From Betaproteobacteria bacterium (GTDB taxonomy: Bacteria > Pseudomonadota > Gammaproteobacteria > Burkholderiales > SG8-41): a stretch of DNA of 45,023 bases. Location: assembly GCA_016183675.1 (NCBI GenBank), contig JACPEF010000227.1:1-45023 (forward strand), read 5' to 3'. The stretch's first letter is position 1. Each line of letters opens with the position of its first letter. The position numbers and the translations under genes are program-made. Positions 11,477 through 42,084 of this stretch are shown here, one piece after another. A model generated the notes under the pieces. The model did not search any database and had not been told where the DNA came from. It saw only the letters and a list, made by a program, of their open reading frames with translations.

Positions 11477-12157
11477 TTCAAGAACTTGGGTCTTTTCGAT
11501 ACGGTTAAGGCCTTCTGCGTCGCGCTCGCCTGCGCGGCGCTGCTCGCCGCGCCCGCCGCAGCCCAGGCGGTCGAACACGGCCAGCACAGCTTCTCCCGCG
11601 CGGAAAAGTGGGCGCAGGTCTTCGATGATCCGGCGCGCGACGAATGGCAAAAGCCGGACGAAGTGATCCGCGCGTTGAAGCTTGCCCCGGAAGCCCTGGT
11701 CGCCGACATCGGCGCGGGCACCGGCTACTTCGCGGTGAGGTTTGCACGCGCGGTGCCGAAGGGCCGCGTCTACGGCGCGGACACCGAGCCCGACATGGTG
11801 CGCTACCTCGCCGAGCGCGCGCAGCGCGAGAAGCTCGGCAACCTCACCGCAGTCCCCGCCAAACCGGACGACCCGGGCATTCCGGCGGCGGTGGATCTCG
11901 CGATCCTGGTGGACACGTACCACCACGTGTCCGACCGCGAGCGCTACTTCACGAACCTGCAGAAATCGCTCAAGCCGAAAGGCCGGCTTGCGATCATCGA
12001 CTTTACGCTCGACTCACCCGTCGGCCCGCCGAAGCGCGCCCGCATTCCGGCCGACAAGGTGAAGCAGGAGCTCGCGCGCGCGGGCTACAAGCTCGTGCAG
12101 GAGCACGCCTTCCTGCCCAACCAGTACTTCCTCGTCTTCCGGCCTCAGAAGCAGTGA
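11444..12157 (+). CDS. Class I SAM-dependent methyltransferase with N-terminal signal-like segment
   Basis: 237-aa ORF with SAM motif I VADIGAGTGYFAVRFA. The first 11 codons run through the hairpin arm, so the in-frame TTG at 11486 is an alternative start (GLFDTVKAFCVALACAALLAAPAAAQA). Confidence 0.8.
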   Translation: MKPSCPLCPLWFKNLGLFDTVKAFCVALACAALLAAPAAAQAVEHGQHSFSRAEKWAQVFDDPARDEWQKPDEVIRALKLAPEALVADIGAGTGYFAVRFARAVPKGRVYGADTEPDMVRYLAERAQREKLGNLTAVPAKPDDPGIPAAVDLAILVDTYHHVSDRERYFTNLQKSLKPKGRLAIIDFTLDSPVGPPKRARIPADKVKQELARAGYKLVQEHAFLPNQYFLVFRPQKQ

Positions 12158-12210
12158 CGCAGTGACGTGGTGATGCAGTGAAGAAATGACGCAGTGACAA
12201 AGTGAAGGGT
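12151..12210 (+). repeat. CAGTGAC-type tandem array starting at the methyltransferase stop codon
   Basis: GCAGTGACGCAGTGACGTGGTGATGCAGTGAAGAAATGACGCAGTGACAAAGTGAAGG. The TGA stop (12155-12157) lies inside the first unit. Confidence 0.7.
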
Positions 12211-12265
12211 TAGAGCGTCCCGGCGCTTCGGATTAAACGCGCGTAACTAGAAAGTAAAGCCCTCA

Positions 12266-12322
12266 CGACCCCCCCCGCCCTGGCTGCGACTGCTCGGCGG
12301 CGAAGAGGGGCCCCGCAAGCAA
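12266..12322 (+). repeat. Dispersed about 55-bp GC-rich repeat, copy A (partner at 35946-36000)
   Basis: The core CTGCGACTGCTCGGCGGCGAAGAGGGGCCCC matches CTGCGACTGCTCGGCAGCGAACAGGGGCCCC at 35963-35993 with 2 mismatches. The flanking CGACCCCC..TGG is also shared. Confidence 0.55.
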
Positions 12323-12395
12323 TAGTCGAGATCATTTTTGGATATCGAAAACGGGCGGAGATATTTCGACTCCGACCCCCTTGCGTGCGCAAGAA

Positions 12396-14272: not shown

Positions 14273-14545
14273 GTCTCCAAACTAACTCAAACACGGTCCA
14301 ATGTCGCGCAGAGCTTAGGACCGTTCACTGACCCTTCTCACAGACTCACCAAGAGCGACGCGGTGAAGCGCGCGCTCGAGCGCCTGTTCGAGCAAACCAG
14401 GGCCTCGACCAGCGTCTACCGGGCAAGCGCGAAGTTCCGCAGCAGCGACAAGACGCCGGGTGACGTCGCGCGCCACTCGAAACGCCTGCTCGAATGGGCG
14501 CACGAGGGAAGCCTCGCCGTGGTGGACGTGCCAGTATAGTACCGG

Positions 14546-14569
14546 AAAAAAAACCCCGCCGAAGCGGGG
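14546..14569 (-). terminator. Rho-independent terminator of cspA
   Basis: Minus strand: CCCCGC-TTCG-GCGGGG followed by nine T, 23 nt after the cspA stop. Confidence 0.85.
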
Positions 14570-14592
14570 TTTCGCGGTGATGCGGGCGGACT

Positions 14593-14799
14593 TCACGCGG
14601 CTTTCAGATTGGTCGCGGAGATCTTGCCGTTGTTGCCCTTCTCCAGGTCGAACGAGACTTTCTGCTTCTCGCTCAGCGTGCCAAGACCCGCGCGCTCGAC
14701 CGCGGAGATGTGCACGAACACGTCCTTCGAGCCGTCATCGGGTTGAATGAAGCCGAAGCCTTTGGTGCTGTTGAAAAACTTTACGGTGCCGGTAGACAT
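14593..14799 (-). CDS. cspA: Cold-shock protein CspA family
   Basis: ATG at 14799 after [39 protein letters not shown] contains the RNP1 and RNP2 motifs. The longer ORF to 14916 has no support. Confidence 0.95.
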
Positions 14800-14980
14800 A
14801 ATGTCCTCCAGATGTGGCGTGGCCGCGCGCGAAAATGCGCGGGGCATCAAATTTACCTGTGGGAAAGGACCGAAAGTGCCAGCCGGAAATGAACTACAAA
14901 CAGACCCAAAGCGCATTCGACCCCGCCATTATGCGCCCAAAGCGCCGGCACGTATATGATTCCTTTCTCGGGGTGCAACT

Positions 14981-15048
14981 CATCACTCATCACCGGGTTT
15001 CAAGCCGGTCACCAGTAATCGTCACCATTATCTCGTCACCCATCACTG
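14981..15048. repeat. CATCAC/GTCACC short-period repeats in the cspA-infA divergent spacer
   Basis: CATCACTCATCACCGGGTTTCAAGCCGGTCACCAGTAATCGTCACCATTATCTCGTCACCCATCACTG. Confidence 0.6.
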
Positions 15049-15264
15049 TTTCCTGGTAATTCTCCTTGCCAACGGTGCCCGCAGCGCCCAAACTCGCGCG
15101 TCACAACGGCTGCCGGGCGGTCATTCGCAGTCTTTCCGGACGGCTTTGCAGTCTCCCTGCTCGATGCCGTGCCCATCCCGGGCGCGGGTCCCGGGAAACT
15201 CACACGCAGCACATCACCGCGGGAAGGCGGCAGCGCCGCTGGGTCCCGCCAGGGGAAATCGCAC

Positions 15265-15537
15265 ATGGCAAAAGAAGAAATGATCGAATTGACAGGCGTC
15301 GTCGACGAGGTACTGCCCAGCACGGTGTTCCGCGTGACGCTCGACAACGGGCACGCGGTGACCGCTTACGCGTGCGGAAAGATGCGCCAGCGCCGCATAC
15401 GCATCCTTGCCGGCGACCGCGTCACCGTCGAAATCTCGCCTTACGACCTCACGAAGGGCCGCATCAACTTTCGCCACAAGGACGCCAGCGTCCCGCCGCC
15501 AATGGCGCCGCGGCAGGCGTACCTGCGGCGTCGATAG
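15265..15537 (+). CDS. infA: Translation initiation factor IF-1 with C-terminal basic extension
   Basis: ATG at 15265. [72 protein letters not shown] is the S1-like IF-1 fold. An extra 17 aa follows ([18 protein letters not shown]). Confidence 0.9.
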
Positions 15538-15642
15538 CTGCGGGCGGTCGTCGCCGCGCTGGATGGGCAGCCGTCAGTTCGCACCTGGCCGAAGACTGCC
15601 AACTCCAAACCGACCAGGGCCTACTGGAAACTTTCTTTGTTT

Positions 15643-15665
15643 GTCATCACTCATCACCCATCACG
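15643..15665 (-). repeat. GTGATG heptamer array immediately after the Bug gene stop
   Basis: Minus strand after TAG: CGTGATGGGTGATGAGTGATGAC. Confidence 0.55.
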
Positions 15666-16637: not shown

Positions 16638-16656
16638 CTCGATTCTCCTCTAGTCG

Positions 16657-16724
16657 CTTAGGGGACAGACCACCAAGAACTCCTCCACCAGCGTCTTAGA
16701 ACACCTTAGTGGTCTCTGCCCTAA
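16657..16724. repeat. REP-like palindromic element (CTTAGGGGACAGAC family), copy 2
   Basis: CTTAGGGGACAGACCACCAAG (16657-16677) pairs with CCTTAGTGGTCTCTGCCCTAA (16704-16724), 17/20. Confidence 0.7.
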
Positions 16725-16779
16725 TGATAATTGAATTTTGCTTGATCTAGCTCAAAATCGAGGTCCGCCTCTAACCTGA

Positions 16780-16845
16780 CTTAGGGGACAGACCACTAAG
16801 AAGTTGTTGGGGTGAAGCAGTCCTTAGTGGTTTGTCCCCTATAAG
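16780..16845. repeat. REP-like palindromic element (CTTAGGGGACAGAC family), copy 3
   Basis: CTTAGGGGACAGACCACTAAG (16780-16800) pairs with CTTAGTGGTTTGTCCCCTATAAG (16823-16845), with 1 mismatch and a 2-nt bulge. Confidence 0.7.
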
Positions 16846-16855
16846 GGTTCGCTGG

Positions 16856-23023: not shown

Positions 23024-23167
23024 CTAGTGCCGTTCCAACTTGTTTCTCCAAACTTGGGCGGCTAGCCCCGTTCCAACTTGATTGGCCTAATGACCACGAG
23101 AACTCTTCTGCTGAATATCGTGCCTCGATCACGCATCACAGATAGCTCGAAATAGTTGGAACGGCAC
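23024..23167. mobile_element. MITE-like element of the CTAG-TGCCGTTCCAAC family (one about 106-bp copy, 23062-23167, plus an adjacent solo 38-bp end, 23024-23061)
   Basis: CTAGTGCCGTTCCAACTTGTTTCTCCAAA (23024-23052) is identical over 29 nt to the reverse complement of the right end of the 37952-38059 element. There is a second left end CTAGCCCCGTTCCAACTTG (23062-23080). The right end AAATAGTTGGAACGGCAC (23150-23167) matches the other end of the 37952 copy over 18 nt. Confidence 0.6.
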
Positions 23168-23823
23168 TTGCCTGCCTCGACGCCGCTCACCAGCACGCCG
23201 AGCAGGCCGTACAGCGACAGCTGGAAGCCGCCGCCGCTCGGCGCCGTGGCGAGAAGCCTGTCACCGAGGTAGTCCTTGCCGATCGCGGTCGGCGGCAGGT
23301 CCACCTCGAGCTCGGGGATCGCGCGGGCGACCCAGGCGGTGAAGGTGTTGGAATTCGGTCCCGGCCAGATGGAGTATTCCCCAGCATAGGGGTATTCGCG
23401 GGCGGCTTTGTCGATGCGCCCGATCAGCGCGTCCACCCCGTCTCCGCGCTTCTCGGCCAGGAGCTCCGGCGCGTTTCCGTACCAGCGCGCATCGGGCTCG
23501 CGCTCGTGGATCGCCAACGCGGTATCGTTCCAGCGCAGGCGCCAGCCGATCACCTCGTAGATCGTGTAGCGCTTCGCGCCGGCCGGCTTGACCGCGATCC
23601 AGGAGTGGACGCTGAAATAGCCGCGCCAGCCCCAGGTGCGCGCGGCGTAGACCTGGACGACGGCCTCCGGCGTTGCCGCCGGGTGGGGCGCGAGGCCGAC
23701 CGGCTCGCTGCTCGCAGTGCGCCAATCCCCCGGCCCCGCGCCGCCGCCCGGGAGGACCACGAGCGCCACGAGGCTCGCGAGGACCAAGATGGAGAGAAGT
23801 AGCATGGAGCCTCGCATTTTCAT
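23062..23823 (-). CDS. DUF3750-family membrane-anchored protein with a MITE-encoded C-terminal tail
   Basis: ATG at 23823 (MKMRGSMLLLSILVLASLVALVVL). The core (VQVYAARTWGWRGYFSVHSWIAVKP...YEVIGW...WPGPNSNTF) is as I recall for DUF3750. From codon GKCRSNYFE onward the reading frame is MITE sequence. The stop is the CTAG at 23062. Confidence 0.7.
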   Translation of the reverse strand: MKMRGSMLLLSILVLASLVALVVLPGGGAGPGDWRTASSEPVGLAPHPAATPEAVVQVYAARTWGWRGYFSVHSWIAVKPAGAKRYTIYEVIGWRLRWNDTALAIHEREPDARWYGNAPELLAEKRGDGVDALIGRIDKAAREYPYAGEYSIWPGPNSNTFTAWVARAIPELEVDLPPTAIGKDYLGDRLLATAPSGGGFQLSLYGLLGVLVSGVEAGKCRSNYFELSVMRDRGTIFSRRVLVVIRPIKLERG

Positions 23824-23830
23824 TTTAAAA

Positions 23831-24098
23831 GCGTGACTGGTGAATCGTGCCCAGTGACTCGAAAAGCCGTCAGATCGGGAGGTCGGGAGGGCGGGAGATC
23901 GTGAGACCGAAAAGACGGGAGATCGTGAGATCGGGAAGTCGTGAAAGGGAACTTCCATCTCCCGCGCTCACGCACTCACGCCCTCACGGATTTTGTGGCT
24001 CTCACGCCCTCACGGATTTTGTCGCCCTCACGCGCTCACGCTCTAACGCTCTAACGGAACTTGTCGCTCTCACGCTCTCACGCTCTCCCGCACTCACC
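23831..24098 (+). repeat. Type II composite 8-mer element, copy 1 (about 268 bp)
   Basis: GTGAC-like units (23831-23860), then GGGAGATCGTGAGA-type 8-mers (23871-23950), a centre GGGAACTTCCATCTCCC, then CTCACGCN 8-mers with three copies of the word CCCTCACGGAnnTTGTCGC (23963-24098). It ends on the stop codon of the downstream minus-strand gene. Confidence 0.8.
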
Positions 24099-24687
24099 TC
24101 TTGTGTTTGCCGATGCGCCAGCCGTGGCGAGCGAGATGCTGCTCGCCGAACGCCACCGGCTCCGCCTCGAGCGCGGGAGCGACGGTGTCGTTCCAGCGGT
24201 TTAGGAAACCGTTGATCGCCACCGCGCCCATGATCTCCACGATCTGCGCGTCGGTCCAGTGCCGCTTCATCCGCTCGAACAGCTCGTCGGTGACGGCGTT
24301 CGGCTGTGAGGCCGCGGCGACCGCGAAGTCGAGCGCGACGCGTTCGGCTTCGCTGTAGAGCGGGCTCGTTCGGTACTCGATCACCGCCTCGAGCTTCGCA
24401 TCGTTCACGCCGGCGCGGTGCGCCGCCTCGGCGGCGTGCGCCATGGAATAATTGCACCCGTGCGTGCGGCTCGCCATGTACGCCACGAGCCGCTTGAAGC
24501 CGATGTTCACCTCGCTCGCCGGGTCCCACACCGCGGAAGCGAGCTGGGCGAGCGCCTTCACGAGCTTCGGCTTGCGGCTCATGACGAGCGCGCTGTTGGG
24601 CACATAGCCCAGCAACCGCTTGAAGTTCTGGAAAGCTTCCTGCAGGTCGGGGTTCGCATCCGCCGGCAGCGGGTCCAGGCGTGCCAT
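24094..24687 (-). CDS. Carboxymuconolactone decarboxylase (AhpD-like) family protein
   Basis: ORF 24094..24693 has a GTG start overlapping the upstream stop as GTGA. I prefer the ATG at 24687, 5 nt after GGAG. The segment KRLVAYMASRTHGCNYSMAHAAE is typical of the CMD family. Confidence 0.85.
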   Translation of the reverse strand: MARLDPLPADANPDLQEAFQNFKRLLGYVPNSALVMSRKPKLVKALAQLASAVWDPASEVNIGFKRLVAYMASRTHGCNYSMAHAAEAAHRAGVNDAKLEAVIEYRTSPLYSEAERVALDFAVAAASQPNAVTDELFERMKRHWTDAQIVEIMGAVAINGFLNRWNDTVAPALEAEPVAFGEQHLARHGWRIGKHKR

Positions 24688-24689
24688 GC

Positions 24690-25667
24690 TCACTCCGCCA
24701 CCGCGCCGACGCTCTTCACGATCTTCGCCCAGAACTCGTTCTGCGTCTTCAGGAAGGCGGCGAATTCCTCGGGCGACTTGTTGGTGACGATTTCCGCGCC
24801 GCCCGTCTCCAGGCGCTTGACCACTTCCGGGTCCTCCATCGTCTTGATCATCACGGAATAGAGCCTGTTCACGATCGGCCGCGGCGTGTCCTTGGGCACG
24901 TACATCGCCTGCCAGGAGCCAAGCTTCAGCTCGGGGAACCCCGACTCCGCCATGGTCGGCACCTGCGGCAGGGCAGGTGAGCGCTTCGGCGCCATGACCG
25001 CGAGCACCTTGGCCCTGCCGGTCTTCACGTGCGGGATGAACGACGCGACGGTGACCATGGTCGCGGTGACCTCGCCGGCGAGCACCGCGGTGGTCGCCGC
25101 CCCGGCACCGCCCTTGTAGGGGATGTGCACGAGCTGGATGCCGGCCTTGTTCATGAAGAACTCGAACGCGAGGCGCTGAGCGCTACCGGCGCCCGCGGAT
25201 CCGTAGTTGAGCTGCCCCGGACGCGCCTTGGCGTAGTCGATGAACTCCTTCACCGTGTTGGCCGGCACCGACGGATGCGTCGCGAAGGCCCCCGGCACGT
25301 CCACGAGGAGCGTCAGCCCGAAGAAGTCACGCACCGGCTTCACGGGAAACTTCGGGAAGACGCTCGGGTTGATCGCCGTCGTGCCGACGTTGCCGAGGAA
25401 GAGGGTGTAGCCGTCCGGGGCGGCGCGCGCGGCGATCTCGACACCGATGTTACCGGAGGCGCCCGCGCGGTTGTCCACCACGACCTGCTGTCCCAGCAGC
25501 TCGCTCATCCTGGGCTGGATGATGCGTGCAACGAAGTCCGAGGAGCCGCCGGGGTTGAACGGCACGATCATGCGCACCGGCCGCGCCGGGTAGCTTTGCG
25601 CGTGCGCCGCGCCCGCGGCGAGCAGGCAGACGAGGACGGTCAGGATGCGTTGCGACAGGGGCTTCAT
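24690..25667 (-). CDS. Bug/TctC-family periplasmic solute-binding protein (5 of 10)
   Basis: 325-aa ORF with AGGAGGAAACC RBS. MKPLSQRILTVLVCLLAAGAAHAQSYPARPVRMIVPFNPGGSSD. Adjacent to or overlapping the CMD gene, so probably an operon. Confidence 0.9.
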   Translation of the reverse strand: MKPLSQRILTVLVCLLAAGAAHAQSYPARPVRMIVPFNPGGSSDFVARIIQPRMSELLGQQVVVDNRAGASGNIGVEIAARAAPDGYTLFLGNVGTTAINPSVFPKFPVKPVRDFFGLTLLVDVPGAFATHPSVPANTVKEFIDYAKARPGQLNYGSAGAGSAQRLAFEFFMNKAGIQLVHIPYKGGAGAATTAVLAGEVTATMVTVASFIPHVKTGRAKVLAVMAPKRSPALPQVPTMAESGFPELKLGSWQAMYVPKDTPRPIVNRLYSVMIKTMEDPEVVKRLETGGAEIVTNKSPEEFAAFLKTQNEFWAKIVKSVGAVAE

Positions 25668-27074: not shown

Positions 27075-28082
27075 TTAATACATCTGCTCCGCCTTGATCC
27101 CCGCGTCCCGGATGAGCTTGGACCACTTCTCCATCTCGGAGCGGATGAACGCGGCGAATTCCGGCGGCGTGCTGCCGACCGGCTCGAAGCCGAAGTTTGC
27201 GAGCCGCGCCTTGGTCTCGGGCAGGTGCAGAATTTTCGCGAGTTCCGCCTGGAGCTTCGCGACGATGCGGGGCGGGGTCTTGCCCGGCGCGAGCATGGCG
27301 CCCCACGCGTCCACCGCGTAGCCCGTGAGCCCGCTCTCCGAAAGCGTCGGCACGTCCGGCAGCTCGGTCGAGCGCGCGAGGCTCGTCGTCGCGAGCGCGC
27401 GGAGCCGGCCCGCGCGCACGTGCGGTATCGCGGGCGCGACCTGCGTGAAGAGCATCTGCACTTCCCCGCTCAGCACCGCCGCGGTCGAGGCGCCCGCCCC
27501 CTTGTAGGCCACGCCGACCATGTTCAAGCCCGCCATCTTCTTGAACAGCTCGACCGACAGGTGCCCGCCGGTGCCGACGCCGGAGTGGGCGTAGGTGAGG
27601 CTCCCCGGCTTCGATTTCGCGAGCGCGAGCAGCTCCTTGATCGTTTTCGAGGCGAGCGACGGGTGGGAGACGAGAACGTGCGTGGTCTTGCCGAGCACCG
27701 TGACCGGCGCAAAGTCCTTCACCGTGTCGTAGGGGAGCTTCCGGTAGAGGAACGGGTTGACCGTGTAGCCGGTCGCGACGATCAGCAGCGTGTGCCCGTC
27801 CGGCGCCGCGCGCGCGACGATCTCGGAGCCGATGATGCCGCCGGCTCCGGGACGGTTGTCCACCACGACCTGCTGGCGCCACGACTCGGTGAGCTTCGGC
27901 GCGATCAGCCGCCCGAGGAAATCATTGCCCCCGCCGGGGGTGGAGGGAATGACGATCCGGATCGGTCGCGCAGGATAAGCCGCCGCCGGGTCCGCGCCCT
28001 TCGGTTGCGCCGCCTGGCCGGCGCCCACCCCGGTGCCGCACAGGGCGACGGCAAAGGAAACAACCTTCCAGAATGTGGGCAT
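27075..28082 (-). CDS. Bug/TctC-family periplasmic solute-binding protein (6 of 10)
   Basis: The ATG at 28082 has better GGAGG spacing than the GTG at 28085. MPTFWKVVSFAVALCGTGVGAGQAA...YPARPIRIVIPSTPGGGND. Confidence 0.9.
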   Translation of the reverse strand: MPTFWKVVSFAVALCGTGVGAGQAAQPKGADPAAAYPARPIRIVIPSTPGGGNDFLGRLIAPKLTESWRQQVVVDNRPGAGGIIGSEIVARAAPDGHTLLIVATGYTVNPFLYRKLPYDTVKDFAPVTVLGKTTHVLVSHPSLASKTIKELLALAKSKPGSLTYAHSGVGTGGHLSVELFKKMAGLNMVGVAYKGAGASTAAVLSGEVQMLFTQVAPAIPHVRAGRLRALATTSLARSTELPDVPTLSESGLTGYAVDAWGAMLAPGKTPPRIVAKLQAELAKILHLPETKARLANFGFEPVGSTPPEFAAFIRSEMEKWSKLIRDAGIKAEQMY

Positions 28083-28140
28083 CACTCTTCCTCCTCGCGT
28101 TGTGCCTCTACCTTATCACCGTTTCCCTCGTCCCTCACGG

Positions 28141-28330
28141 CCAGTGACGTGACCAGTGGCGGGCGACGGGAAATCGCTGCGAACCGTGAGTCGGGAGATC
28201 GTGAGATCCGGGAGCCGTGAGATCGTCAAATCGGGAGATCGTGAGGAGGTATTCCCTTCTCTCGCGCTCACGCTCTTACGCCCTCACGGAATTTGTCGCT
28301 CTCCCGCTCTGACGCTCTCGCGGCCTCACG
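28141..28330 (+). repeat. Type II composite 8-mer element, copy 2 (about 190 bp)
   Basis: CCAGTGACGTGACCAGTGG, then GGGAGATCGTGAGATCCGGGAGCCGTGAGATCGTCAAATCGGGAGATCGTGAGG, a centre AGGTATTCCC, then CGCGCTCACGCTCTTACGCCCTCACGGAATTTGTCGCTCTCCCGCTCTGACGCTCTCGCGGCCTCACG. Confidence 0.8.
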
Positions 28331-28539: not shown

Positions 28540-29118
28540 ATGAATAAGCTCCGTTTTGCATGGCTTTTCAGCGCGCTTGCCCTGGTGGCCACCGCCGCCG
28601 ACGCCCAGACCGCGATGCGGGTGCGCGGCGCCATCACCGCCGTCGACGACAACGTGCTTTCGGTGAAATCCGCAGACGGCAGGAACGTGGCCATCCACCT
28701 CGCGGAAAAAACCGTCATCGTCTTCACCCAGCCGATTGCGCTCGGCGACATCAAGCCGGGCGACTTCCTCGGCGTCACCTCGTTGAGGCGCGACGACGGC
28801 ACCCTCACGGCGGTCGAGGTGCGCCGGTTTCCCAAGCCCCTCAACCCGGGCCACCGGCCCTTCGATGGCCGGAGCGATCAGACCATGACCAACGCCACGG
28901 TGTCCGCGATGGTCCAGTCCGGCAGCGGCCGCGAGCTGACCCTCGTCTACCCGGACGGGTCGCAGAAGATCGTCGTGCCGGAAAACGCGTCGATCTCGAT
29001 GCTCGTCCCGGGGGAGCGCTCGCAGCTCGTGCCCGGCGCGGCCGTGAACCTGACCGCCGCGCCCGGTGACGACGGCACAATGATCGCGCGGCGCATCCAG
29101 GTAAGCCCGGTCCGGTAG
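28540..29118 (+). CDS. Secreted beta-rich protein (two DUF5666-like repeats)
   Basis: ATG at 28540 inside ORF 28156..29118. Signal peptide MNKLRFAWLFSALALVATAADAQ. Repeated pattern G.IT.V....L.V...DG..V.......T.I........L.D.K.GD. The family call is tentative. Confidence 0.6.
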   Translation: MNKLRFAWLFSALALVATAADAQTAMRVRGAITAVDDNVLSVKSADGRNVAIHLAEKTVIVFTQPIALGDIKPGDFLGVTSLRRDDGTLTAVEVRRFPKPLNPGHRPFDGRSDQTMTNATVSAMVQSGSGRELTLVYPDGSQKIVVPENASISMLVPGERSQLVPGAAVNLTAAPGDDGTMIARRIQVSPVR

Positions 29119-29137: not shown

Positions 29138-29232
29138 GCGTGACGGGTGACCAAGGTCTTGTTCAAAGTTCAAAGTTCAAAGTTGCACGATGAACCCTGA
29201 ACCTTGAACGTTGAACCTGGAACCTGGAACAG
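29138..29232 (+). repeat. Type I modular element, full copy (GTGAC - GTCTT - GTTCAAA x3 - loop - GAACCTN x6)
   Basis: GCGTGACGGGTGACCAAGGTCTTGTTCAAAGTTCAAAGTTCAAAGTTGCACGATGAACCCTGAACCTTGAACGTTGAACCTGGAACCTGGAACAG. Begins 19 nt after the stop of the upstream + gene. Alignable with 32731-32848 on the minus strand. Confidence 0.8.
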
Positions 29233-30522: not shown

Positions 30523-30533
30523 GATTCTCTCCT

Positions 30534-30613
30534 GACGGGTGATGGGTGATGGGTGATGAGTGATCAGTGACGAGTGACGAACGCCATCTCCTTCTGCCTT
30601 CTGCCTTCCTTGC
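30534..30613. repeat. GGTGATG/AGTGACG heptamer array plus CCTTCTG module
   Basis: GACGGGTGATGGGTGATGGGTGATGAGTGATCAGTGACGAGTGACGAACG (30534-30583), then CCATCTCCTTCTGCCTTCTGCCTTCCTTGC (30584-30613). It fills the whole spacer between two minus-strand genes. Confidence 0.75.
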
Positions 30614-32367: not shown

Positions 32368-32518
32368 GTGACGAATGCTGGTGACGATTACTGGTGACGG
32401 GTGCTGGTGACGGGTAAACAACGTTTTTCGTCACTATCTTTCGTCAGTTCCTTTCGTCACCATTTTTCATCACCATCATTCGTCACCATTAATCGTCACT
32501 TCTTTACTAATCGGTCAC
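32368..32518. repeat. Long inverted array: (CTGGTGACG)n facing (CGTCACN)n
   Basis: GTGACGAATGCTGGTGACGATTACTGGTGACGGGTGCTGGTGACGGGT (32368-32415), then a loop AAACAACGTTTTT, then TCGTCACTATCTTTCGTCAGTTCCTTTCGTCACCATTTTTCATCACCATCATTCGTCACCATTAATCGTCAC...CGGTCAC (to 32518). Confidence 0.8.
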
Positions 32519-32721
32519 TCGGGCTTGATGCCCGCCGCCTTGATCACCTTCGCCCACTTCGCCATGTCGGATCGAATGACGGCCGCGAATGCTTCCGGGG
32601 TATTCCCCACCGGCTCGGCGCCGCTGCTGAGAAAGCGTTTCCTGGTATCGGGAACCTTGAGCGCGTAGACCACGCCCTCGTGGAGTCTTGCGATGATGTC
32701 GCGCGGCGTGCCGGGGATGAG
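32515..32721 (-). pseudogene. 3' relic (last about 68 codons) of a Bug/TctC-family gene
   Basis: Not in the ORF track because there is no start codon. My minus-strand translation is LIPGTPRDIIARLHEGVVYALKVPDTRKRFLSSGAEPVGNTPEAFAAVIRSDMAKWAKVIKAAGIKPE*. This matches the family C-terminus (..GTP..I...L......P....R....G.EP....PE.F...I..E..KW..VI...GIK). The frame is closed upstream by TGA at 32743-32745, inside the neighbouring repeat element. Confidence 0.7.
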
Positions 32722-32730: not shown

Positions 32731-32848
32731 CCTGTTCCAGGTTCAACGTTCAAGGTTCTAGGTTCAAGGGTCAAGGTTTAGAGTTCAGGGTTCGTCGCGC
32801 AACTTTGAACTTTGAACTCAGAACTTTGAACAAGACTCCCGTCACCCC
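32731..32848 (-). repeat. Type I modular element, full copy
   Basis: Minus strand: GGGTGACGGGAGTCTTGTTCAAAGTTCTGAGTTCAAAGTTCAAAGTTGCGCGACGAACCCTGAACTCTAAACCTTGACCCTTGAACCTAGAACCTTGAACGTTGAACCTGGAACAGG. Begins 30 nt after the stop of the upstream minus-strand transporter gene. Confidence 0.8.
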
Positions 32849-32878: not shown

Positions 32879-34504
32879 TTACGCGCTGCGGAACTGGGTG
32901 ATCCGCGCAAAAAGGATGGCCGCGAACGGGAGCGCGAGCCCGATCACCGTCGTCGCGATGAGAAGCAGGCCGAGCTCGCTGTAGTCCGCCGGCACCTGGA
33001 TCGCGCCGCTCGCGGGGTCCTTGACCTCGCGCGTGACCGTGAAACCCTGGTTCAGGTACTTGGTGCCGAGCTGGGAGAGCGAGAGCGCGAGATTGGTGAA
33101 GGAAGCCATGACCGCGAAGAAGGTCGCCTTGAGGTTCGCGGGCGCGGAGCGCGCGATCCAGGCGAGCATCGGGATCATCGCGATCTGCCCGAGCGGGGAC
33201 TCGAGGGCGGTGTTCACCAGCGCGATAAAGCGCGCGTTCACCATGCCGCCCGTCACGGAGGCAGTCCACTCGTGAAGCCCGTAGTACATGCCGATGTACG
33301 GGGCTCCCAGCACGAAGCCGCAAACCGTGAGGAAGCCTATGACGTAGGCGATGGAGCGCTCGGCCATGAAGCGGCGGAAGATGAACATGCCGAAGAGCGT
33401 CAGCACGCTCCCGATCAGCGAGAGCACCGAGATGAACTGCTGGTCGAACTTCAACTCGTCGATCAACCACCAGGTGACGCCGGCGCCCGCGCCGGGAACG
33501 GCACGGAAAATGAAGATCACGATCGCGGTGCCCACCAGCGTCGCGCGCGCCTCCGGGTCGAGCTCGCGCGTGAGCTTCGCCACGAGGAAGGCGATGATCG
33601 CGAAGGAACCGAGGAAGATCACCTCCTGGTTGTAGCGGAAGTCGCCCAGGCCCATGGTGAGCGTGAAGACGACGAAGAAGAGGCTTCCGCCGAGGATCCA
33701 CCAGTTGGGGGCGGGGGGCTCCCCGGGCTCGGAAACGAGCGCGCGCACCTGCTCCGCGCTCAGGCCCTGCGCGAGGAGCCGCCGCTTCTCGCGCGCCTTC
33801 AGTATCGCCGCGACGACCACCCCCAGCACCGAGATCGCGGGGATCGCGAGCGCCATGAGGTAGATGTCGCGGTAGAGGCGCGCCTTCCCGGCTTCGGGCC
33901 ACTCCTGCGTACCGGCGAATAGATAGACGTTGGCGAGCGCGACCAGCACCGTGCCGCCGATGATCGCGACGCGCCCGAGCGTCTGCATCGTGGTGTGCAT
34001 GAGCTTGCGGTTCTCGGGGTCTATCGGGCGGCCCTCAACGTCCGCCTTCGGCACGGCCTCGACGGTCATCGCGTCCGCCACCACGTCCTGAAGCACGTAG
34101 CCGACCGGCGCGAGGAGCTCCGCCACTACGAACCACGCCTCGACCGGCATCACCGCGGCCATCGCCGAGCGCTCGCCGATCAGCCCCGCCATGATCAGCA
34201 GGCTCGCGGCGACGAGGAATGCGCCGAGGTAGACGAGAGAGCTCTTCCAGCGCCAGATGAGGTCCACGAGGTGCCCGAGCGGCATCTTCAGCGCCCACGG
34301 GATCCCGGCCCAGAAGCCGAGCGCGGCGAGGAACGCGGCGGAAAGGCCGAGGTAGTCCTTGACAAAGAAGACACCGACGATGCCCGTGAGCCCCGAGATG
34401 CCGGCCGCCATGTAGACCATGAGCGGCGGGAGATAGGAGAGGCGCAGCTCGCGCCCCAGCTCGAGGATGTTGCGGTCTATCCAGCGCAGCGCGGCGGCCA
34501 GCAT
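32879..34504 (-). CDS. Polytopic MFS-like transporter (resembles the folate/biopterin BT1 family)
   Basis: 541-aa ORF with about 12 hydrophobic segments. The N-terminal LSYLPPLMVYMAAGISGL..FFVKDYLGLSAAFLAALGFWAGIPWALKMPLGHLVD resembles the BT1 signature as I recall it. Confidence 0.7.
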   Translation of the reverse strand: MLAAALRWIDRNILELGRELRLSYLPPLMVYMAAGISGLTGIVGVFFVKDYLGLSAAFLAALGFWAGIPWALKMPLGHLVDLIWRWKSSLVYLGAFLVAASLLIMAGLIGERSAMAAVMPVEAWFVVAELLAPVGYVLQDVVADAMTVEAVPKADVEGRPIDPENRKLMHTTMQTLGRVAIIGGTVLVALANVYLFAGTQEWPEAGKARLYRDIYLMALAIPAISVLGVVVAAILKAREKRRLLAQGLSAEQVRALVSEPGEPPAPNWWILGGSLFFVVFTLTMGLGDFRYNQEVIFLGSFAIIAFLVAKLTRELDPEARATLVGTAIVIFIFRAVPGAGAGVTWWLIDELKFDQQFISVLSLIGSVLTLFGMFIFRRFMAERSIAYVIGFLTVCGFVLGAPYIGMYYGLHEWTASVTGGMVNARFIALVNTALESPLGQIAMIPMLAWIARSAPANLKATFFAVMASFTNLALSLSQLGTKYLNQGFTVTREVKDPASGAIQVPADYSELGLLLIATTVIGLALPFAAILFARITQFRSA

Positions 34505-34516: not shown

Positions 34517-34836
34517 GATGAGTGACGAAACTAACGTGAGGGCGTGAGAGCGTCAGGGCGATAAGTTCCGTGAGGGCGTAAGAGCGTGAGCGCGACAGAA
34601 CCCGTGAGGGCGTTAGGGCGAGAGAGCGTGAGAGGGACAAGATCCGTGAGGGCGTAAGAGCGGGAGCGCGGGAGAGCGACAGCGACCCTCTGAACGTTCC
34701 ATCTCACCATTTCACGATCTCACGATCTCCCGGTTTCTCTCGATCTCACGACCTCTCGATCTCAGAGTCTTTCGATCTCCCGATCTCACGGTTGTTCCGG
34801 TCACTGGTCACCGGTCACCGGTCACTGGTCACCGGT
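34517..34836 (-). repeat. Type II composite 8-mer element, copy 3 (reverse orientation, about 320 bp) with a GTCACYG heptamer block
   Basis: Plus strand: CGTGAGGGCGTGAGAG-type units with three GCGAnAnnnnCCGTGAGGG words (34535-34680), then a centre, then GATCTCACGATCTCCC-type units (34702-34790), then GTCACTGGTCACCGGTCACCGGTCACTGGTCACCGG (34797-34835) abutting the TPR gene stop. Confidence 0.8.
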
Positions 34837-35655
34837 TTAGTTGGGCGGGAAGGGCTTCCCGGCGCGGTAGAGCTGCAGCCGCTCCTGCGCGCCCCTGTTC
34901 TTGGCGAACTCCTTGTCCTCGAGCGCCTTCATCTGCCACTTCACGGCGGCTGCGAAGTCGCCGGCGCGGGCGTAGGCCGCCGCGAGCGTATCGATGTGGC
35001 CGGGCTCCTTCCAATGGGTGAGCTCGCACGCCTGCAACGCGAGCTCCACCGCCCGTTTGCCGTCGCGCAGCGCCGGGTTCTTCCCGGTGGCGAGCAGCCA
35101 CGCGAGCGAGTCGAGCGCATCGTCATCGCGCGGATCGAGCTTGATCGCCTCGTTGTAGTCCTGGATCGCCTCTTGGTAGCGCCCGAGCTTGTCGTAGGAG
35201 CTTGCGCGGTTGGCGTAGTTGTTCGCTTCGTGAGGAGCCAGCCTGATCGCCTCGCCATAGTCCTTGATCGCCTGCTCGTATCGCTTGAGGTTCTCGTAGG
35301 CCGTTCCGCGGCCCGCGTAGGCGTCGGAGAACCCGGGGTCGAGCCGGATCGCCTCGCTGTAATCCTTGATCGCGCGCTCGTTCTGCCCGAGCTCCTGGTA
35401 GGAGACGCCGCGGTTGTAATACGCGCGCGTGAATTTCGGATCGAGGCGGATCGCCTCGTCGAAGAAACCGACCGCCTTCTGATAGAGACCGGTCTTGCCC
35501 TCGATGAGGCCCTGGGTAAAGGCGTCCCTCGCCGCCTCCGGCTGCGCCGCGCACACTCCCGCCGCGATCATCGCGAGCGAGAATAGCGCCGCCCGCGCAC
35601 CGGCCATCGCCTGCCCGGAACCCGTGAGTCGTGATTCGACTCCTTTTGCCTTCAT
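34837..35655 (-). CDS. Secreted tetratricopeptide-repeat (TPR) protein
   Basis: 272-aa ORF. At least five 34-aa repeats share the A..(D/Y)...AI.LDP pattern (AIRLDPKFTRAYYNRG, AIRLDPGFSDAYAGRG, AIRLAPHEANNYANRA, AIKLDPRDDDAL). Signal-like ALFSLAMIAAGVCAAQ. An alternative ATG is at 35607. Confidence 0.85.
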   Translation of the reverse strand: MKAKGVESRLTGSGQAMAGARAALFSLAMIAAGVCAAQPEAARDAFTQGLIEGKTGLYQKAVGFFDEAIRLDPKFTRAYYNRGVSYQELGQNERAIKDYSEAIRLDPGFSDAYAGRGTAYENLKRYEQAIKDYGEAIRLAPHEANNYANRASSYDKLGRYQEAIQDYNEAIKLDPRDDDALDSLAWLLATGKNPALRDGKRAVELALQACELTHWKEPGHIDTLAAAYARAGDFAAAVKWQMKALEDKEFAKNRGAQERLQLYRAGKPFPPN

Positions 35656-35690
35656 CCTTCTGCCTTCTGCCTTAGCTGCTCATCCCTTAT
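35645..35690 (-). repeat. CAGAAGG module overlapping the TPR gene start
   Basis: Minus strand: GGGATGAGCAGCTAAGGCAGAAGGCAGAAGGATGAAGGCAAAAGG. The ATG of the TPR gene directly follows two CAGAAGG units. Confidence 0.6.
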
Positions 35691-35728: not shown

Positions 35729-36000
35729 GGTGACTTTCTCTTGCTCGCCCAAGAGAAAGGTCACCAAAGAGAAGGGCGCCCCGGTTCGCCGCCGCTACCT
35801 CGTGAACTCGTAGCGGTCCCCTGCGCTGCTCGACCAGGCAGGGCGGCTGCGCAACTCGCGCACTCACTTCGCTATTGCTCGCGACATTGGGCGGGCGTCC
35901 TCAGCGATAAGGAGAGGCACACGAAACTCGCCCAGTGCTCGCCGACGACCCCCTACCTGGTCTGCGACTGCTCGGCAGCGAACAGGGGCCCCAAGAACAA
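35729..36000. repeat. Structured GC-rich element: near-perfect 15/16-bp hairpin plus an about 230-bp imperfect palindrome
   Basis: GGTGACTTTCTCTTG-CTCGCCC-CAAGAGAAAGGTCACC (35729-35765). GGGCGCCCCGGTTCGCCGCCG (35774-35794) is an imperfect complement of CGGCAGCGAACAGGGGCCCC (35974-35993). The right arm recurs at 12266-12322. Confidence 0.5.
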
Positions 36001-36004: not shown

Positions 36005-36106
36005 CGTCAGTCATCACTCGTCAGTCGTCACCGGGGTTAAGGCGCTCATCCCTCTCCTTCATCCTTCTACCTTCTGCCTTCTGCCTTCTTCCATCCGCCT
36101 TCCGCC
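36005..36106. repeat. CGTCAnT heptamers plus a second CAGAAGG/CCTTCTG module
   Basis: CGTCAGTCATCACTCGTCAGTCGTCACC (36005-36032). GCTCATCCCTCTCCTTCATCCTTCTACCTTCTGCCTTCTGCCTTCTTCCATCCGCCTTCCGCC (36044-36106). Confidence 0.65.
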
Positions 36107-36196
36107 GTGGGCAGCGTGAAGTATAGTCGAAGCGCGCCCGGGCCGGCCCCCCACCGCGCATTGACCCGTCCCGGCGCGTGCGTTAACGTCGCGGGC

Positions 36197-36382
36197 TCGA
36201 TCATCAATCGCCTGAACCAGGCGGTGCACGACGCGCTCGCCGCCCCCGACATCAGGCAACGCTTCCCGGAGCTCGGCGTGGAGGCGCGTCCCGCGACCCC
36301 CGAGGCCTTCCGCGAGCTGCTCATCTCCGAGATCGCCAAGTGGAAAGCCGTGATCGAGAAAGCGAAGATACCGCGCCAGTGA
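36197..36382 (+). pseudogene. 3' relic (last about 61 codons) of a Bug/TctC-family gene
   Basis: The C-terminal part of the 91-aa ORF 36107..36382 reads SIINRLNQAVHDALAAPDIRQRFPELGVEARPATPEAFRELLISEIAKWKAVIEKAKIPRQ*, which matches the family C-terminus. The 30 codons upstream of it have no family similarity. Confidence 0.7.
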
Positions 36383-36612
36383 CCGGGGCGCCGTGAGATC
36401 GTGAAGTCGGGAAATCGGGAGATTGAAAAGCCGGGAGATCGGGAGTTCGGGAGATCGGGAGATCGTGAACTCGAAGAATATCGTCCCTCTCACGCTCTCA
36501 CGCCCTCACGGAACTTGTCGCCCTCCCGCGCTCACGCTCTCACCCTCTAACACCCTGACGCTCTCACGGATTCTGTCGCTCTCCCGCCCTCACGCTCTCC
36601 CGCTCTCACGTC
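36378..36612 (+). repeat. Type II composite 8-mer element, copy 4 (about 235 bp)
   Basis: Starts at the relic stop (CAGTGACCGG). CGTGAGATCGTGAAGTCGGGAAATCGGGAGAT...GGGAGATCGGGAGATCGTGAAC (36392-36473), a centre TCGAAGAATATCG, then CTCTCACGCTCTCACGCCCTCACGGAACTTGTCGCC...CTCTCACGGATTCTGTCGCTCTCCCGCCCTCACGCTCTCCCGCTCTCACG (36485-36610). Confidence 0.8.
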
Positions 36613-37564: not shown

Positions 37565-37694
37565 GCCACAGAGAGCACAGAGAACACAGAGTTAGGGAGG
37601 AGCACCCCCTCCCTACCCCTCCTCCTCAGGCGGAGGGAAGGGCGGGGGTTGTTGACCGAGTTTATTTCTACGTGAACTCTCTGTCCTCTGTGGC
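37565..37694 (+). repeat. Type III-like element: CACAGAG hairpin
   Basis: GCCACAGAGAGCACAGAGAACACAGAGTT (37565-37593) faces AACTCTCTGTCCTCTGTGGC (37675-37694). The loop holds an internal AGGGAGG-N7-CCTCCCT hairpin. Confidence 0.7.
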
Positions 37695-40278: not shown

Positions 40279-40312
40279 AAAAACTGATCTCAATAACAAC
40301 AGGAAAAACAAA

Positions 40313-40346
40313 ACGGCGCTGCGGAGTCCGCAGCGCCGTTTTTTTT
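40313..40346. terminator. Strong rho-independent terminator between convergent Bug genes (probably bidirectional)
   Basis: ACGGCGCTGCGG-AGT-CCGCAGCGCCGT (12-bp stem) followed by eight T on the plus strand. On the minus strand the same stem is followed by TTTTGTTTTT. Confidence 0.85.
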
Positions 40347-40519
40347 GGAAGTGCCAGCGACTCGTCACCTGTTACTTATCACGCTTTCTCCTCATCCCTG
40401 GTCTACGACCCCGGCCCGCCGCGCTGCATCGCGTCGGGCGTTCGCCGGCTCGAACGTGCGCAGGCACGTTCTTCGAAACCCCGGCTTACCCCTCCGCCCT
40501 CATCCCTCGGCAGCTCCCG

Positions 40520-41544: not shown

Positions 41545-41583
41545 GAGTCGTGAGCCGTTAACCAGTCACTGGTCACTGGTCGC
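41545..41583. repeat. GTCACTG heptamer array upstream of the Bug gene
   Basis: GAGTCGTGAGCCGTTAACCAGTCACTGGTCACTGGTCGC. Confidence 0.55.
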
Positions 41584-41682
41584 AGCGCCCAATGTGCCGC
41601 ATAGGGTAGACCGCCTCCCCCTCCCGCGCAAACTCTGATGAGGCGTGGCCCGTGACGACGTAAAGCCTTTCACCCATTCAAT

Positions 41683-42050: not shown

Positions 42051-42084
42051 GCGTGATTCGTGAATCGTGATTCGTGATTCGACG
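42051..42084. repeat. GTGATTC heptamer array between dctM and the DUF1330 gene
   Basis: GCGTGATTCGTGAATCGTGATTCGTGATTCGACG. Confidence 0.65.

Follow-up and report, generated by a model that had tools for sequence, protein, structure and literature searches.

A Type II composite element consists of a left array, (CGKGAGAT)n, a short A-rich to T-rich centre and a right array, (CNCTCMCG)n, and is one flavour of a lineage-wide pattern in which a G-rich array is followed by a C-rich one. Judged by its sequence, it is an 8-nt, unequal-arm variant of the GGGNATC-type G-rich repeats. On balance, we favour reading it as a convergent pair of degenerate short-unit microsatellite arrays, driven by slippage and acting as passive intergenic punctuation.

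Four window copies and the wider family

The window, that is, the whole stretch of 45,023 nt that was analysed, carries four such elements. The original prediction had placed copies A to D here and described them as degenerate arrays of 8-nt units. All four were recovered at their places by re-reading and by an independent detector (left unit CG[GTCA][GA]A[GA]NT, right unit CNCT..CG), which returned exactly four Type II composites, at 23876-24090 (+), 28167-28322 (+), 36392-36610 (+) and 34535-34790 (-), and period 8 was found in both arms. The wider limits first drawn for copies A and D also include neighbouring heptamer arrays (GTGACNN and CCGGTCA units). The parts and neighbours of the copies are as follows.

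23831-23875, + strand: copy A outer array, built of heptamer words of the GTGA type (GCGTGACTGGTGAATCGTG...CAGTGAC), from sequence reading; it abuts the start of a DUF3750 gene (23062-23823, - strand)
23876-23939, + strand: copy A left (G-rich) arm, CGGGAGRT and CGTGAGAT units, with a canonical G-quadruplex (G4) motif inside
23940-23964, + strand: copy A centre (CGTGAAAGGGAACTTCCATCTCCCG), a short local hairpin
23965-24098, + strand: copy A right (C-rich) arm, CNCTCMCG units, with three 19-nt words (23981, 24007, 24049)
24094-24693, - strand: CMD-family gene, whose TGA stop (24094-24096) lies within the final right-arm unit of copy A
28167-28239, + strand: copy B left arm, with GTGAC words before it at 28141-28166; the copy sits between two divergent genes, one for TctC (27075-28085, - strand) and one for DUF5666 (28540-29118, + strand)
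28240-28258, + strand: copy B centre (CGTGAGGAGGTATTCCCTT)
28259-28330, + strand: copy B right arm, containing the 19-nt word once, at 28281
36392-36471, + strand: copy C left arm, with a G4 motif inside; it begins 9 nt past the TGA of a TctC C-terminal fragment (36107-36382)
36472-36486, + strand: copy C centre (CGAAGAATATCGTCC)
36487-36612, + strand: copy C right arm, containing the 19-nt word at 36503 and 36561; its end lies 26 nt upstream of the amidohydrolase start codon (36639)
34535-34684, - strand: copy D right arm (GCGTGAGR on the + strand), containing the 19-nt word at 34558, 34592 and 34634; it ends 30 nt before the start of a BT1-family transporter gene (32879-34504, - strand)
34685-34708, - strand: copy D centre
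34709-34790, - strand: copy D left arm (GATCTCNC on the + strand)
34797-34836, - strand: copy D outer heptamer array, (TGACCGG)n, immediately following the TAA stop of a TPR gene (34837-35655, - strand)

All four copies are intergenic, and copies C and D occupy the whole stop-to-start spacer between their genes. Across the window, period-7 and period-8 arrays make up 9.5% of intergenic and 0.2% of coding sequence, with 0% array coverage in composition-shuffled intergenic sequence. Tandem repeats finder (TRF) periods were 8, 26 and 42 in the right arm of copy A, 58 in that of copy C, and 34 and 42 in that of copy D. The GTGAC words seen beside copies A and B are enriched to the left of Type II elements in general (35 GTGAC versus 2 GTCAC).

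The left arm is G-rich on the top strand and built mainly from GGGAG units, with the consensus CG[G 69% / T 24%]GAG[A 78%]T, that is, CGGGAGAT(C), from 533 units. The right arm is G-rich on the bottom strand, where it reads (CGKGAGRG)n, and its top-strand consensus is C[T 44% / C 40%]CTC[A 51% / C 34%]CG; by eye, in the sequence of copy A, about half of it is C, and G is scarce. The arms differ both in their 2-nt spacers (AT in the left, CN in the right) and in their dominant core (GGGAG in the left, GTGAG in the right), and they meet at a centre that is variable as well as short. Unit words of the arrays include GGGAGATC, CTCACGCC and CGTGAGGG. The right arm may further contain an optional 18-19-nt module. 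Its strict 19-nt form, CCCTCACGGANNTTGTCGC, has only three exact matches (24007, 28281, 36503), and the nine occurrences first counted across the four copies are reached with up to two mismatches. With up to three mismatches there are ten matches window-wide, against 0.20 expected, a number that none of 100 dinucleotide shuffles reached. Copies A, B and C together contain five overlapping matches to a 22-base composite pattern, for which 0.00 were expected.

Metagenome contigs of soil, sediment and groundwater origin, drawn from independent JGI, ENA and Logan assemblies, matched this 22-base pattern in one exact-pattern scan; they number at least 120, so that the search for further copies suggested by the original prediction finds a family extending well beyond the window. 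The carriers are uncultured soil and groundwater bacteria that probably belong to the Burkholderiales. Among the matches listed, we detected 124 Type II elements with a median length of 93 nt. The two arms are closely coupled in these matches, with 106 of 116 left arrays having a right array, and 107 of 117 right arrays a left array, no more than 100 nt away; the correlation between left and right arm length is weak (rho = 0.23). Carrier loci have about nine times the density of period-7 and period-8 arrays seen in 121 unrelated genome loci, and the same comparison gave no enrichment for periods 6, 9 and 12. A search of the genome collection with the 14-base word CTCACGGANNNTGTCGC returned chance single matches only, none of them with a real element. 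No tRNA or tmRNA genes were found.

Polarity, folding and variation

The order of the arms recurs far outside the Type II words. Among all adjacent period-7/8 array pairs, 136 run from G-rich to C-rich and 12 in reverse, and the bias persists in pairs without Type II words (39 versus 4, p = 3e-8). Likewise, GC skew is higher in the left than in the right half of 25 of the 34 intergenic regions of the window (Wilcoxon p = 0.0009), an excess present there in all four gene contexts. A polarity rule centred on genes is only half seen in the window: downstream of stop codons the sense strand has a skew of +0.12 (p = 0.003), and upstream of start codons one of approximately zero. The original prediction had the CTCACGC-bearing right arm facing the start codon of the next gene. 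This describes the window, where the distance is 26 nt for copy C, 30 nt for copy D and 210 nt for copy B, but it does not carry over to the family, in which, among the matches listed, the codon that this arm faces is a stop in 62 flanks and a start in 38. In the same matches, Type II elements occur in both orientations and in all four gene contexts, none of them preferred. Median distances there, obtained with a rough ORF caller, are 21 nt (left arm) and 12 nt (right arm) from a stop codon, and 40 nt (left arm) and 69.5 nt (right arm) from a start codon.

Two translational explanations were set aside. Stop codons are some ten-fold denser on the inward-reading strand (0.042 per nt) than on the outward-reading strand (0.0044 per nt), and TGA lies on the G-rich strand in 55% of non-Type-II arrays, compared with 15% when units are shuffled. 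Despite this, we do not regard a three-frame stop pad as the selected function: the polarity is also present in divergent regions, where no translation enters, and we therefore take stop density to be a consequence rather than a cause. Shine-Dalgarno mimicry by the G-rich units was likewise not adopted, its effect being significant but small (longest common substring 3.98 versus 3.64 nt; duplex energy -6.5 versus -6.1 kcal/mol) against an assumed proteobacterial 16S rRNA 3' tail.

The element had been predicted to fold back on itself as a whole, and the minimum free energy (MFE) fold does join the two arms, with a median of 66% of left-arm bases paired to the right arm among the matches listed, but its stability is not above that of dinucleotide shuffles. 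Fold z-scores were 0.04 for copy C and -1.0 for copy D, with a median of -1.7 over 124 copies among the matches listed. Shuffling the order of units gave equally good folds (mean z +0.16), and unit order is not mirrored between the arms. We thus rejected the hairpin as a selected feature, given its weak z-scores, the equal performance of unit-order shuffles and the scarcely correlated arm lengths. Of the left arms among the matches listed, 25% contain a canonical G4 motif, as do 19-29% of the right arms, against 7-13% of shuffled arms, and counts of G3 tracts show no sharp peak at four. With only a minority of arms qualifying, G-quadruplex formation was rejected as a common property. Since the hairpin is no better than chance and G4 capacity is confined to a minority, neither structure is universal in the family. 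Scans for intrinsic terminators and for the sigma-70 promoter consensus found none inside any of the four elements, whose centres contain only short T runs located inside the loop.

The arrays persist at orthologous sites while their unit number and sequence change. A contig from an independent sample (L244) encodes an amidohydrolase 100% identical to that of the window and represents a near-identical strain; its element matches the outer ~83 nt of the right arm and the leader of copy C, and the inner units differ, bearing out the expectation of the original prediction that unit content varies between strains. In two orthologous contig pairs (L142/L162 and L125/L151) the element is kept between conserved genes with different unit numbers, and in relatives at 91-94% protein identity other arrays occupy the orthologous site upstream of the amidohydrolase gene. 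Copies within one genome, in turn, resemble one another. Among the matches listed, presence or absence of the 19-nt word, which occurs in 26% overall, is concordant in 12 of 13 contigs with at least two copies, and three copies on a single contig (L155) have cores 86-93% identical between unrelated flanks. Most likely, the arrays change by slippage and are homogenised within each genome.

Known repeats and competing explanations

The original prediction could name no earlier description of such an architecture. Paired, convergent arrays of degenerate G-rich units have, however, been published: Xanthomonas and Nostoc contain quadruplex-forming arrays of degenerate G-rich GGGNATC heptamers (Rehm et al. 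2015, PLoS One, PMC4692102), and each Xanthomonas genome has 70-75 of them in convergent pairs, with one array per strand. These arrays, of 2-26 units each, are ~90% intergenic, lie mostly between co-directional genes, and place their G-rich strand in sense within 50 bp after a stop codon and in antisense within 50 bp before an ORF (PMC4692102). Their length and sequence vary among close relatives, most are transcribed, they have no association with IS elements or transposons, and their function is unexplained; at least four G3 tracts with short loops give them G4 capacity, four units being preferred (PMC4692102). The Type II left unit is similarly tandem and degenerate, with a G3 tract followed by A..TC, and Type II elements are likewise strongly intergenic, convergently paired and variable in unit number and sequence. 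The Type II dyad also yields the same stop/start polarity, with a right arm at a median of 69.5 nt from the start codon, which exceeds the 50 bp before an ORF. In contrast to the 7-nt GGGNATC unit, the Type II unit (GGGAGATC) has 8 nt, and because its period is 8 we call Type II a variant of these repeats rather than a member. Other differences are that the two Type II arms are not the same repeat, that the right arm may contain the 18-19-nt module, that four G3 tracts in close succession are present in only about a quarter of arms, so that G4 capacity is not general, and that the hosts carry many other 7/8-nt flavours under the same dyad rule. A literature search on the repeat strings themselves found no published occurrence.

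Other repeat classes resemble Type II less completely. Long simple sequence repeats, with units of 5-11 nt (Mrazek et al. 2007, as summarised in passages of PMC4679880, which also outline a slippage hypothesis for units of ~7 nt), and the 6-8-nt microsatellite families of Burkholderia treated in part of PMC6749651 share with Type II the intergenic tandem 7-8-nt arrays, the polymorphism, the proposed slippage and the abundance in some Betaproteobacteria. By TRF and shuffling, Type II falls among such repeats, as tandem arrays of 5-11-nt units longer than chance. In the passages on them in these two sources, however, long repeats are described as single arrays rather than coupled convergent pairs around a centre, and those passages report no G-rich-then-C-rich order. 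The STRR heptamers of cyanobacteria and the TAACTGA repeats of Beggiatoaceae are also intergenic short tandem units near gene ends, patchy in phylogeny and unexplained in function, but they are direct, A/T-rich repeats, mostly just upstream of starts, with no paired inverted arm (PMC4679880). Type II elements resemble REP, BIME and REPIN sequences and MITEs in being multi-copy, intergenic, non-coding and of dyad symmetry, in occurring in either orientation and in their within-genome resemblance. They differ from these classes in lacking a conserved 20-40-nt palindrome, a GTAG-type end and a target-site duplication, in a stem stability at chance level, and in arms that are variable-length microsatellites. 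No IS200/IS605-like (RAYT) gene was found in the window, most of whose ~40 genes were Pfam-scanned. As originally stated, the element is not a CRISPR array: its 8-mers are contiguous and lack unique spacers, no cas domain was found in the Pfam-scanned genes of the window, and with the 23-47-nt direct repeats and unique spacers of CRISPR it shares repetition only.

We consider it unlikely that Type II is a non-autonomous, MITE- or REPIN-like mobile element, inserted whole, whose arms would offer subterminal arrays of sites to a transposase with its gene elsewhere in the genome. The high copy number, the obligate coupling of arms inverted at the word level, the near-identical cores with unrelated flanks within one contig (L155, L197) and a 19-nt module marking genome-specific sub-families would all fit whole-element insertion. 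Against this, target-site duplication is absent, direct repeats across the element ends averaging 3.63 nt against 3.64 in the null, although very short duplications could escape at ends as fuzzy as these. Inverted repeats in the flanks average 3.77 against 3.81 in the null, there is no sharply conserved terminal motif, no transposase was found among the ~40 genes (most of them Pfam-scanned) of the window, and the pattern has no match in the viral contigs of IMG/VR. Moreover, copies stay at orthologous sites and diverge gradually, and the many unrelated unit flavours with the same dyad design would need many separate transposases. That the elements are collapsed or chimeric repeat reads is a negligible prospect. 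Short-read assemblers do often break or mis-size such arrays, and the L244 contig ends within one, but the same architecture recurs in at least 120 contigs, the outer ~83 nt of the copy C right arm and its leader are identical in an independent sample, and each copy sits between intact genes; the independent JGI, ENA and Logan assemblies effectively refute the misassembly that the original prediction had allowed for.

Tandem units of 7 or 8 bp are recognised by ribbon-helix-helix proteins, examples being omega of pSM19035 and MetJ. It is conceivable, if improbable, that the arms are iteron-like arrays on which a ribbon-helix-helix protein of ParG/omega type, or a nucleoid protein, would place one dimer per 7-8-bp unit, in opposite orientations on the two arms. 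Word and orientation are indeed conserved where base pairing is not, and in two unrelated plasmids parA is preceded by a perfect array of Type II units: (CTCTCACG)15 in Komagataeibacter pKNA08, adjoining a ribbon-helix-helix gene, and (GGTGAGAT)22 in a plasmid of Rahnella sikkimica. These plasmid arrays are, however, single and perfect rather than composite, and parA adjoins only 2 of 10 plasmid matches. Unlike type Ib partition centromeres, Type II elements have no parA beside them in the window, where no partition gene was found (most genes Pfam-scanned), and protein binding of this kind would mean hundreds of chromosomal sites with very degenerate units, in an architecture that dozens of other unit flavours also show. 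A dedicated RNA element regulating the downstream gene, either a stem-loop terminator or attenuator or a Rho-loading or shielding device, appears quite unlikely. In its Rho version the C-rich arm would be a rut site and the G-rich arm would mask it. The spacers of co-directional gene pairs must be transcribed, copies C and D fill theirs from stop to start, the right arm of copy A is by eye about half C with little G, the MFE fold pairs the arms over a median 66% of left-arm bases, and the G-rich-then-C-rich polarity is strongly non-random. Yet stability does not exceed that of shuffles, unit order gives no sign of co-linear pairing, arm lengths correlate weakly (rho = 0.23), there is no U-tract and no terminator or promoter consensus match, and no gene context is preferred. 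An Rfam search of the whole window returned nothing at gathering thresholds, and a permissive search gave one chance-level miRNA match (E = 0.24).

A proposed mechanism and its implications

Under the favoured reading of slippage-driven convergent microsatellites, the arrays would grow, shrink and alter through replication slippage and unequal recombination, and copies would be homogenised, or copied within a genome, through recombination. Only one polarity may be tolerated, with the G-rich, TGA-bearing strand being sense just after a stop codon and antisense just before a start codon; this local rule alone would give a G-rich-then-C-rich dyad in every gene context. A transcript across the element would contain a purine-rich, stop-codon-dense tract followed by a pyrimidine-rich tract, and from these tracts a stem-loop with many bulges could form, or a G-quadruplex in a minority of copies. 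The effect is most likely a passive punctuation or insulation of transcription and translation units rather than a sequence-specific switch. Slippage alone does not account for the appearance of the three-part design at new sites, for the arm-specific 2-nt spacers (AT versus CN), or for the 19-nt module common to copies in one genome, and this shared module means that some copying mechanism is needed.

A lesser possibility, to which we give only a small weight, is that in an uncultured soil Burkholderiales-like clade nearly all intergenic spacers consist of convergent G-rich 7-8-nt arrays, generated or maintained by a dedicated system and with a real separating role. Here, the many array flavours would share a GTGA core, Type II being one flavour homogenised within a genome, and the system might consist of a protein that binds the arrays, or of an activity for templated repeat addition or gene conversion. 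If true, this would imply that the arrays really serve to keep transcription and translation units apart.

Several bacterial groups commonly carry G-rich intergenic repeats with units of 7-8 nt. In practical terms, Type II arrays break short-read assemblies, and because their outward-reading strand is almost without stop codons, gene callers will over-extend the 5' ends of neighbouring genes. More generally, the elements described here show that the convergent-pair design, known from Xanthomonas and cyanobacteria, also occurs in uncultured bacteria that are abundant in soil and groundwater. Since unequal arms and the loss of G4 capacity are tolerated, neither a stable hairpin nor a quadruplex explains this design. 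The G-rich-then-C-rich rule, holding on either strand across dozens of unrelated unit sequences, is a sharper experimental target than any single motif.

The composite elements of the window

All four stretches named in the original prediction have the three-part layout claimed for them. A composite detector built independently of the predicted coordinates and scanned across the 45 kb recovered exactly four such composites, termed Type II, each with a left arm built from octamers of the CGGGAGAT and CGTGAGAT type, a centre of 15-25 nt free of repeats and a right arm built from octamers of the CNCTCACG and CNCTCCCG type:

23876-24090 (+), copy A; a CMD-family gene takes its stop codon from the last unit
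28167-28322 (+), copy B
36392-36610 (+), copy C, before the amidohydrolase gene
34535-34790 (-), copy D, before the BT1-family transporter gene

A 19-nt word in the right arms had been counted nine times. This number holds at up to two mismatches, with every occurrence inside a right arm, while the strict word is present only three times; at up to three mismatches there are ten occurrences in the window against 0.2 expected by chance. The word is found in all four copies; in the right arms it gives rise to higher-order periods of 26, 34, 42 and 58 nt (TRF). The window has a G+C content of 65%, and its genes belong to ordinary metabolism, TctC/Bug-type solute receptors accounting for more than ten; Pfam scans covering most of the genes found no transposases and, as predicted, no cas genes. 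For one flanking protein, the closest named relatives, at ~80% identity, come from MAGs that carry the label Betaproteobacteria or Burkholderiales.

Several other features of the window were recorded:

36107-36382 (+) and about 32516-32720 (-), C-terminal ends only of TctC/Bug receptors (...KWKAVIEKAKIPRQ* type), both with repeat arrays at their borders; apparently what is left of genes truncated beside arrays
12265-12335 and 35945-35995, two intergenic regions sharing a further dispersed repeat of about 55 nt, ACGACCCCC..CCTGG.CTGCGACTGCTCGGC.GCGAA.AGGGGCCCC, unrelated to the 7/8-nt arrays
16638-16855, intergenic, two CTTAGGGGACAGACCACYAAGAA copies with inverted partners CTTAGTGGTCTSTGCCCCTAA; may be another small palindromic element
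40310-40347, GGCGCTGCGGAGTCCGCAGCGCC between A and T runs, a canonical bidirectional intrinsic terminator kept in the related locus L121 (about 3745-3790); the arrays on its two sides are of GCCAAGG type in the window but of GGGATGA type in L121
14596-14802 (-), cspA-like cold-shock gene, and 15266-15538 (+), infA, both in an extended region (14273-15665) poor in genes and in arrays; RNA-binding proteins of the CSD and RRM_1 types are likewise encoded in L121

A coupled, polar family of arrays

A 22-base composite pattern, with 0.00 chance matches expected in the window, matches at least 120 contigs of soil, sediment and groundwater metagenomes, and the further copies sought elsewhere therefore exist; viral contigs gave no match to it. 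Across the window, L121 and the 120 metagenome loci listed, 124 Type II elements were detected, with a median length of 93 nt, the window copies being long (155-256 nt). For 106 of the 116 left arrays a right array lies within 100 nt, and for 107 of the 117 right arrays a left one does, counts that are partly circular for the seeded copies, as loci were picked by a pattern needing both arms, but not for extra arrays within the metagenome loci. Pairing of the two arrays is obligate.

The architecture had been thought undescribed, and a literature search for the repeat strings gave no match in searchable papers. It is nonetheless on record for Xanthomonas and Nostoc, in which Rehm et al. 2015 (PMC4692102) reported degenerate GGGNATC-type arrays. 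These are about 90% intergenic, with 2-26 units each, variable among close relatives, mostly transcribed and without a link to mobile elements; Xanthomonas has 70-75 convergent plus/minus-strand pairs per genome. Burkholderia is rich in arrays of 5-11-nt units, most often heptamers, and polymerase slippage is the usual explanation (PMC4679880; PMC6749651). In contrast to the GGGNATC-type repeats, Type II has an 8-nt period, unequal arms and an optional 19-nt module, and a canonical G4 motif is present in only 25% of left and 19-29% of right arms. We therefore treat it as a variant of the published repeats, set apart by period, arms and module.

Type II belongs to a wider pattern of 7/8-nt arrays, of which it is one flavour. 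TRF identified many other intergenic 7-nt arrays in the window, among them GTTCAAG, TGAACCT, GTGACCN, TGATGGG, CCTTCTG and CCGGTCA. Densities per 100 kb are 42.6 (period 7) and 41.4 (period 8) in these loci; the corresponding figures for 121 unrelated genome loci are 4.7 and 4.6, whereas periods 6, 9 and 12 do not differ. In 25 of 34 window intergenic regions the left half exceeds the right in GC skew (Wilcoxon p = 0.0009), in all four gene contexts; the G-rich/C-rich ordering test gives the same answer on either strand. G-rich-then-C-rich order prevails by 136 to 12 among all adjacent period-7/8 pairs, and by 39 to 4 among those lacking Type II words (p = 3e-8). Type II flanks prolong the dyad, with GTGAC words to the left and CCTCA or TCATC words to the right. 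TGA occurs on the G-rich strand of 55% of non-Type-II arrays, against 15% after unit shuffling, the commonest 4-mer there being GTGA, and stop-codon density is ten times higher on the inward-reading than on the outward-reading strand. Downstream of stop codons in the window, sense-strand skew is +0.12 (p = 0.003), and ahead of start codons it is close to 0, so that a gene-centred polarity rule is only half visible there.

Further intergenic arrays in the window, with periods of 7, 8, 9, 13 and 14 nt, usually G-rich then C-rich, lie at:

1831-1896
3517-3575
12151-12198 (from 12148, repeating the upstream gene's last 8 nt including its TGA stop codon)
14978-15040
29161-29230
30533-30608
32368-32502
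32734-32831
35642-35673
36005-36106
37567-37591
41565-41722
42052-42081

The Type II octamers also form perfect microsatellites in unrelated plasmids:

L247 603-708, Komagataeibacter nataicola pKNA08, (CTCTCACG)15, about 150 nt upstream of parA and beside a ribbon-helix-helix gene
L248 606-765, Rahnella sikkimica plasmid, (GGTGAGAT)22, about 480 nt upstream of another parA
L246 575-840, Streptomyces sp. NBC_01732 plasmid, mixed CTCTCACG and CTCCCGCG arrays

Gene context, folding and turnover

A rough, GC3-based ORF caller placed 34 of 85 elements between genes on strands -,- (left, right), 21 between +,+, 17 between convergent and 13 between divergent genes. By the same crude classification, the right arm faces stop codons in 62 flanks and start codons in 38, and the proposed orientation of the CTCACGC block towards start codons is thus limited to the window. 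The element usually fills the spacer between genes, at a median distance of 12-21 nt from the stop codon. Searches for target-site duplications at Type II ends, inverted repeats outside the arrays, Rfam matches and promoter or terminator consensus sequences inside the elements found none.

Unit consensus sequences are CG[G 69% / T 24%]GAG[A 78%]T on the left and C[T 44% / C 40%]CTC[A 51% / C 34%]CG on the right. The arms are complementary at word level only: their spacers differ (AT in one, CN in the other), as do the dominant words, GGGAG on the left and CTCAC, the complement of GTGAG, on the right. Centres are variable, typically running CGAAA, loop, TTTCG. The predicted fold-back does pair both arms, with a median 66% of left-arm bases paired with the right arm at minimum energy, but its stability barely exceeds that of dinucleotide shuffles (median z -1.7 over 124 copies; -0.03 to -1.85 for the window copies; 0.04 and -1.0 for spacers C and D with a separate tool). 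Shuffling unit order within each arm makes no difference (mean z +0.16, p about 0.15), and arm lengths correlate weakly (rho 0.23). We therefore conclude that folding back is a by-product of word-level complementarity and not a conserved structure.

The independent assembly L244, whose amidohydrolase is 100% identical to the window's, carries copy C with the outer ~83 nt of the arm, and the leader in addition, identical and the inner units different. The element is therefore not an assembly artefact, an explanation to which we give next to no credence, and Type II differs between near-identical strains. In two orthologous pairs (L142/L162 and L125/L151) the element is kept between conserved genes while unit number and sequence differ. 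Upstream of the amidohydrolase, arrays turn over among relatives:

Window, Type II
L245 (94% protein identity to the window), (GATCTCCC)n
L122 (93%), CCTTGGCG arrays
L121 (91%), CCTTGGCG arrays, with a Type II copy at a different site

Derived traits are common to copies within one genome. Presence of the 19-nt word, 26% overall, is concordant in 12 of 13 multi-copy contigs, and three L155 copies have cores 86-93% identical between unrelated flanks. Arrays thus probably change by slippage-like steps, and elements also seem to be copied or homogenised within a genome.

Origin and effect of the elements

The elements are coupled convergent arrays, confined to intergenic regions, with unit turnover, within-genome similarity, strict G-rich-then-C-rich polarity and no selected hairpin. 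A MITE- or REPIN-like mobile element would account for the similarity of copies, yet Type II shows neither target-site duplications nor defined ends, the window encodes no transposase, and we regard this origin as unlikely. Less likely still is a dedicated RNA hairpin or Rho device, which is consistent with the polarity but at odds with the folding statistics. Candidate protein-bound iterons draw some support from the perfect arrays upstream of parA on two plasmids; we hold them the least probable of these three, as such binding could hardly extend to chromosomal sites that are degenerate, number in the hundreds and come in dozens of flavours.

Instead, we propose that arrays grow and shrink via slippage and unequal recombination, and that recombination between copies would homogenise them. 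Persistence of an array may require that its G-rich strand, which bears TGA, be sense after a stop codon and antisense before a start codon, a local polarity rule that would yield the same dyad in every gene context. Translation entering an element would be stopped, and the transcript would present a purine-rich and then a pyrimidine-rich tract, which could form a bulged stem and occasionally a G4. The effect of the elements is likely to be one of passive punctuation. At about 4003-4065 of L149 (contig Ga0224497_10007969), a Type II element fills the gap between the tuf (EF-Tu) stop codon and an apparent tRNA gene, by its sequence probably tRNA-Trp. If this neighbour is a tRNA, the elements would be tolerated even in a highly conserved, highly expressed gene cluster.
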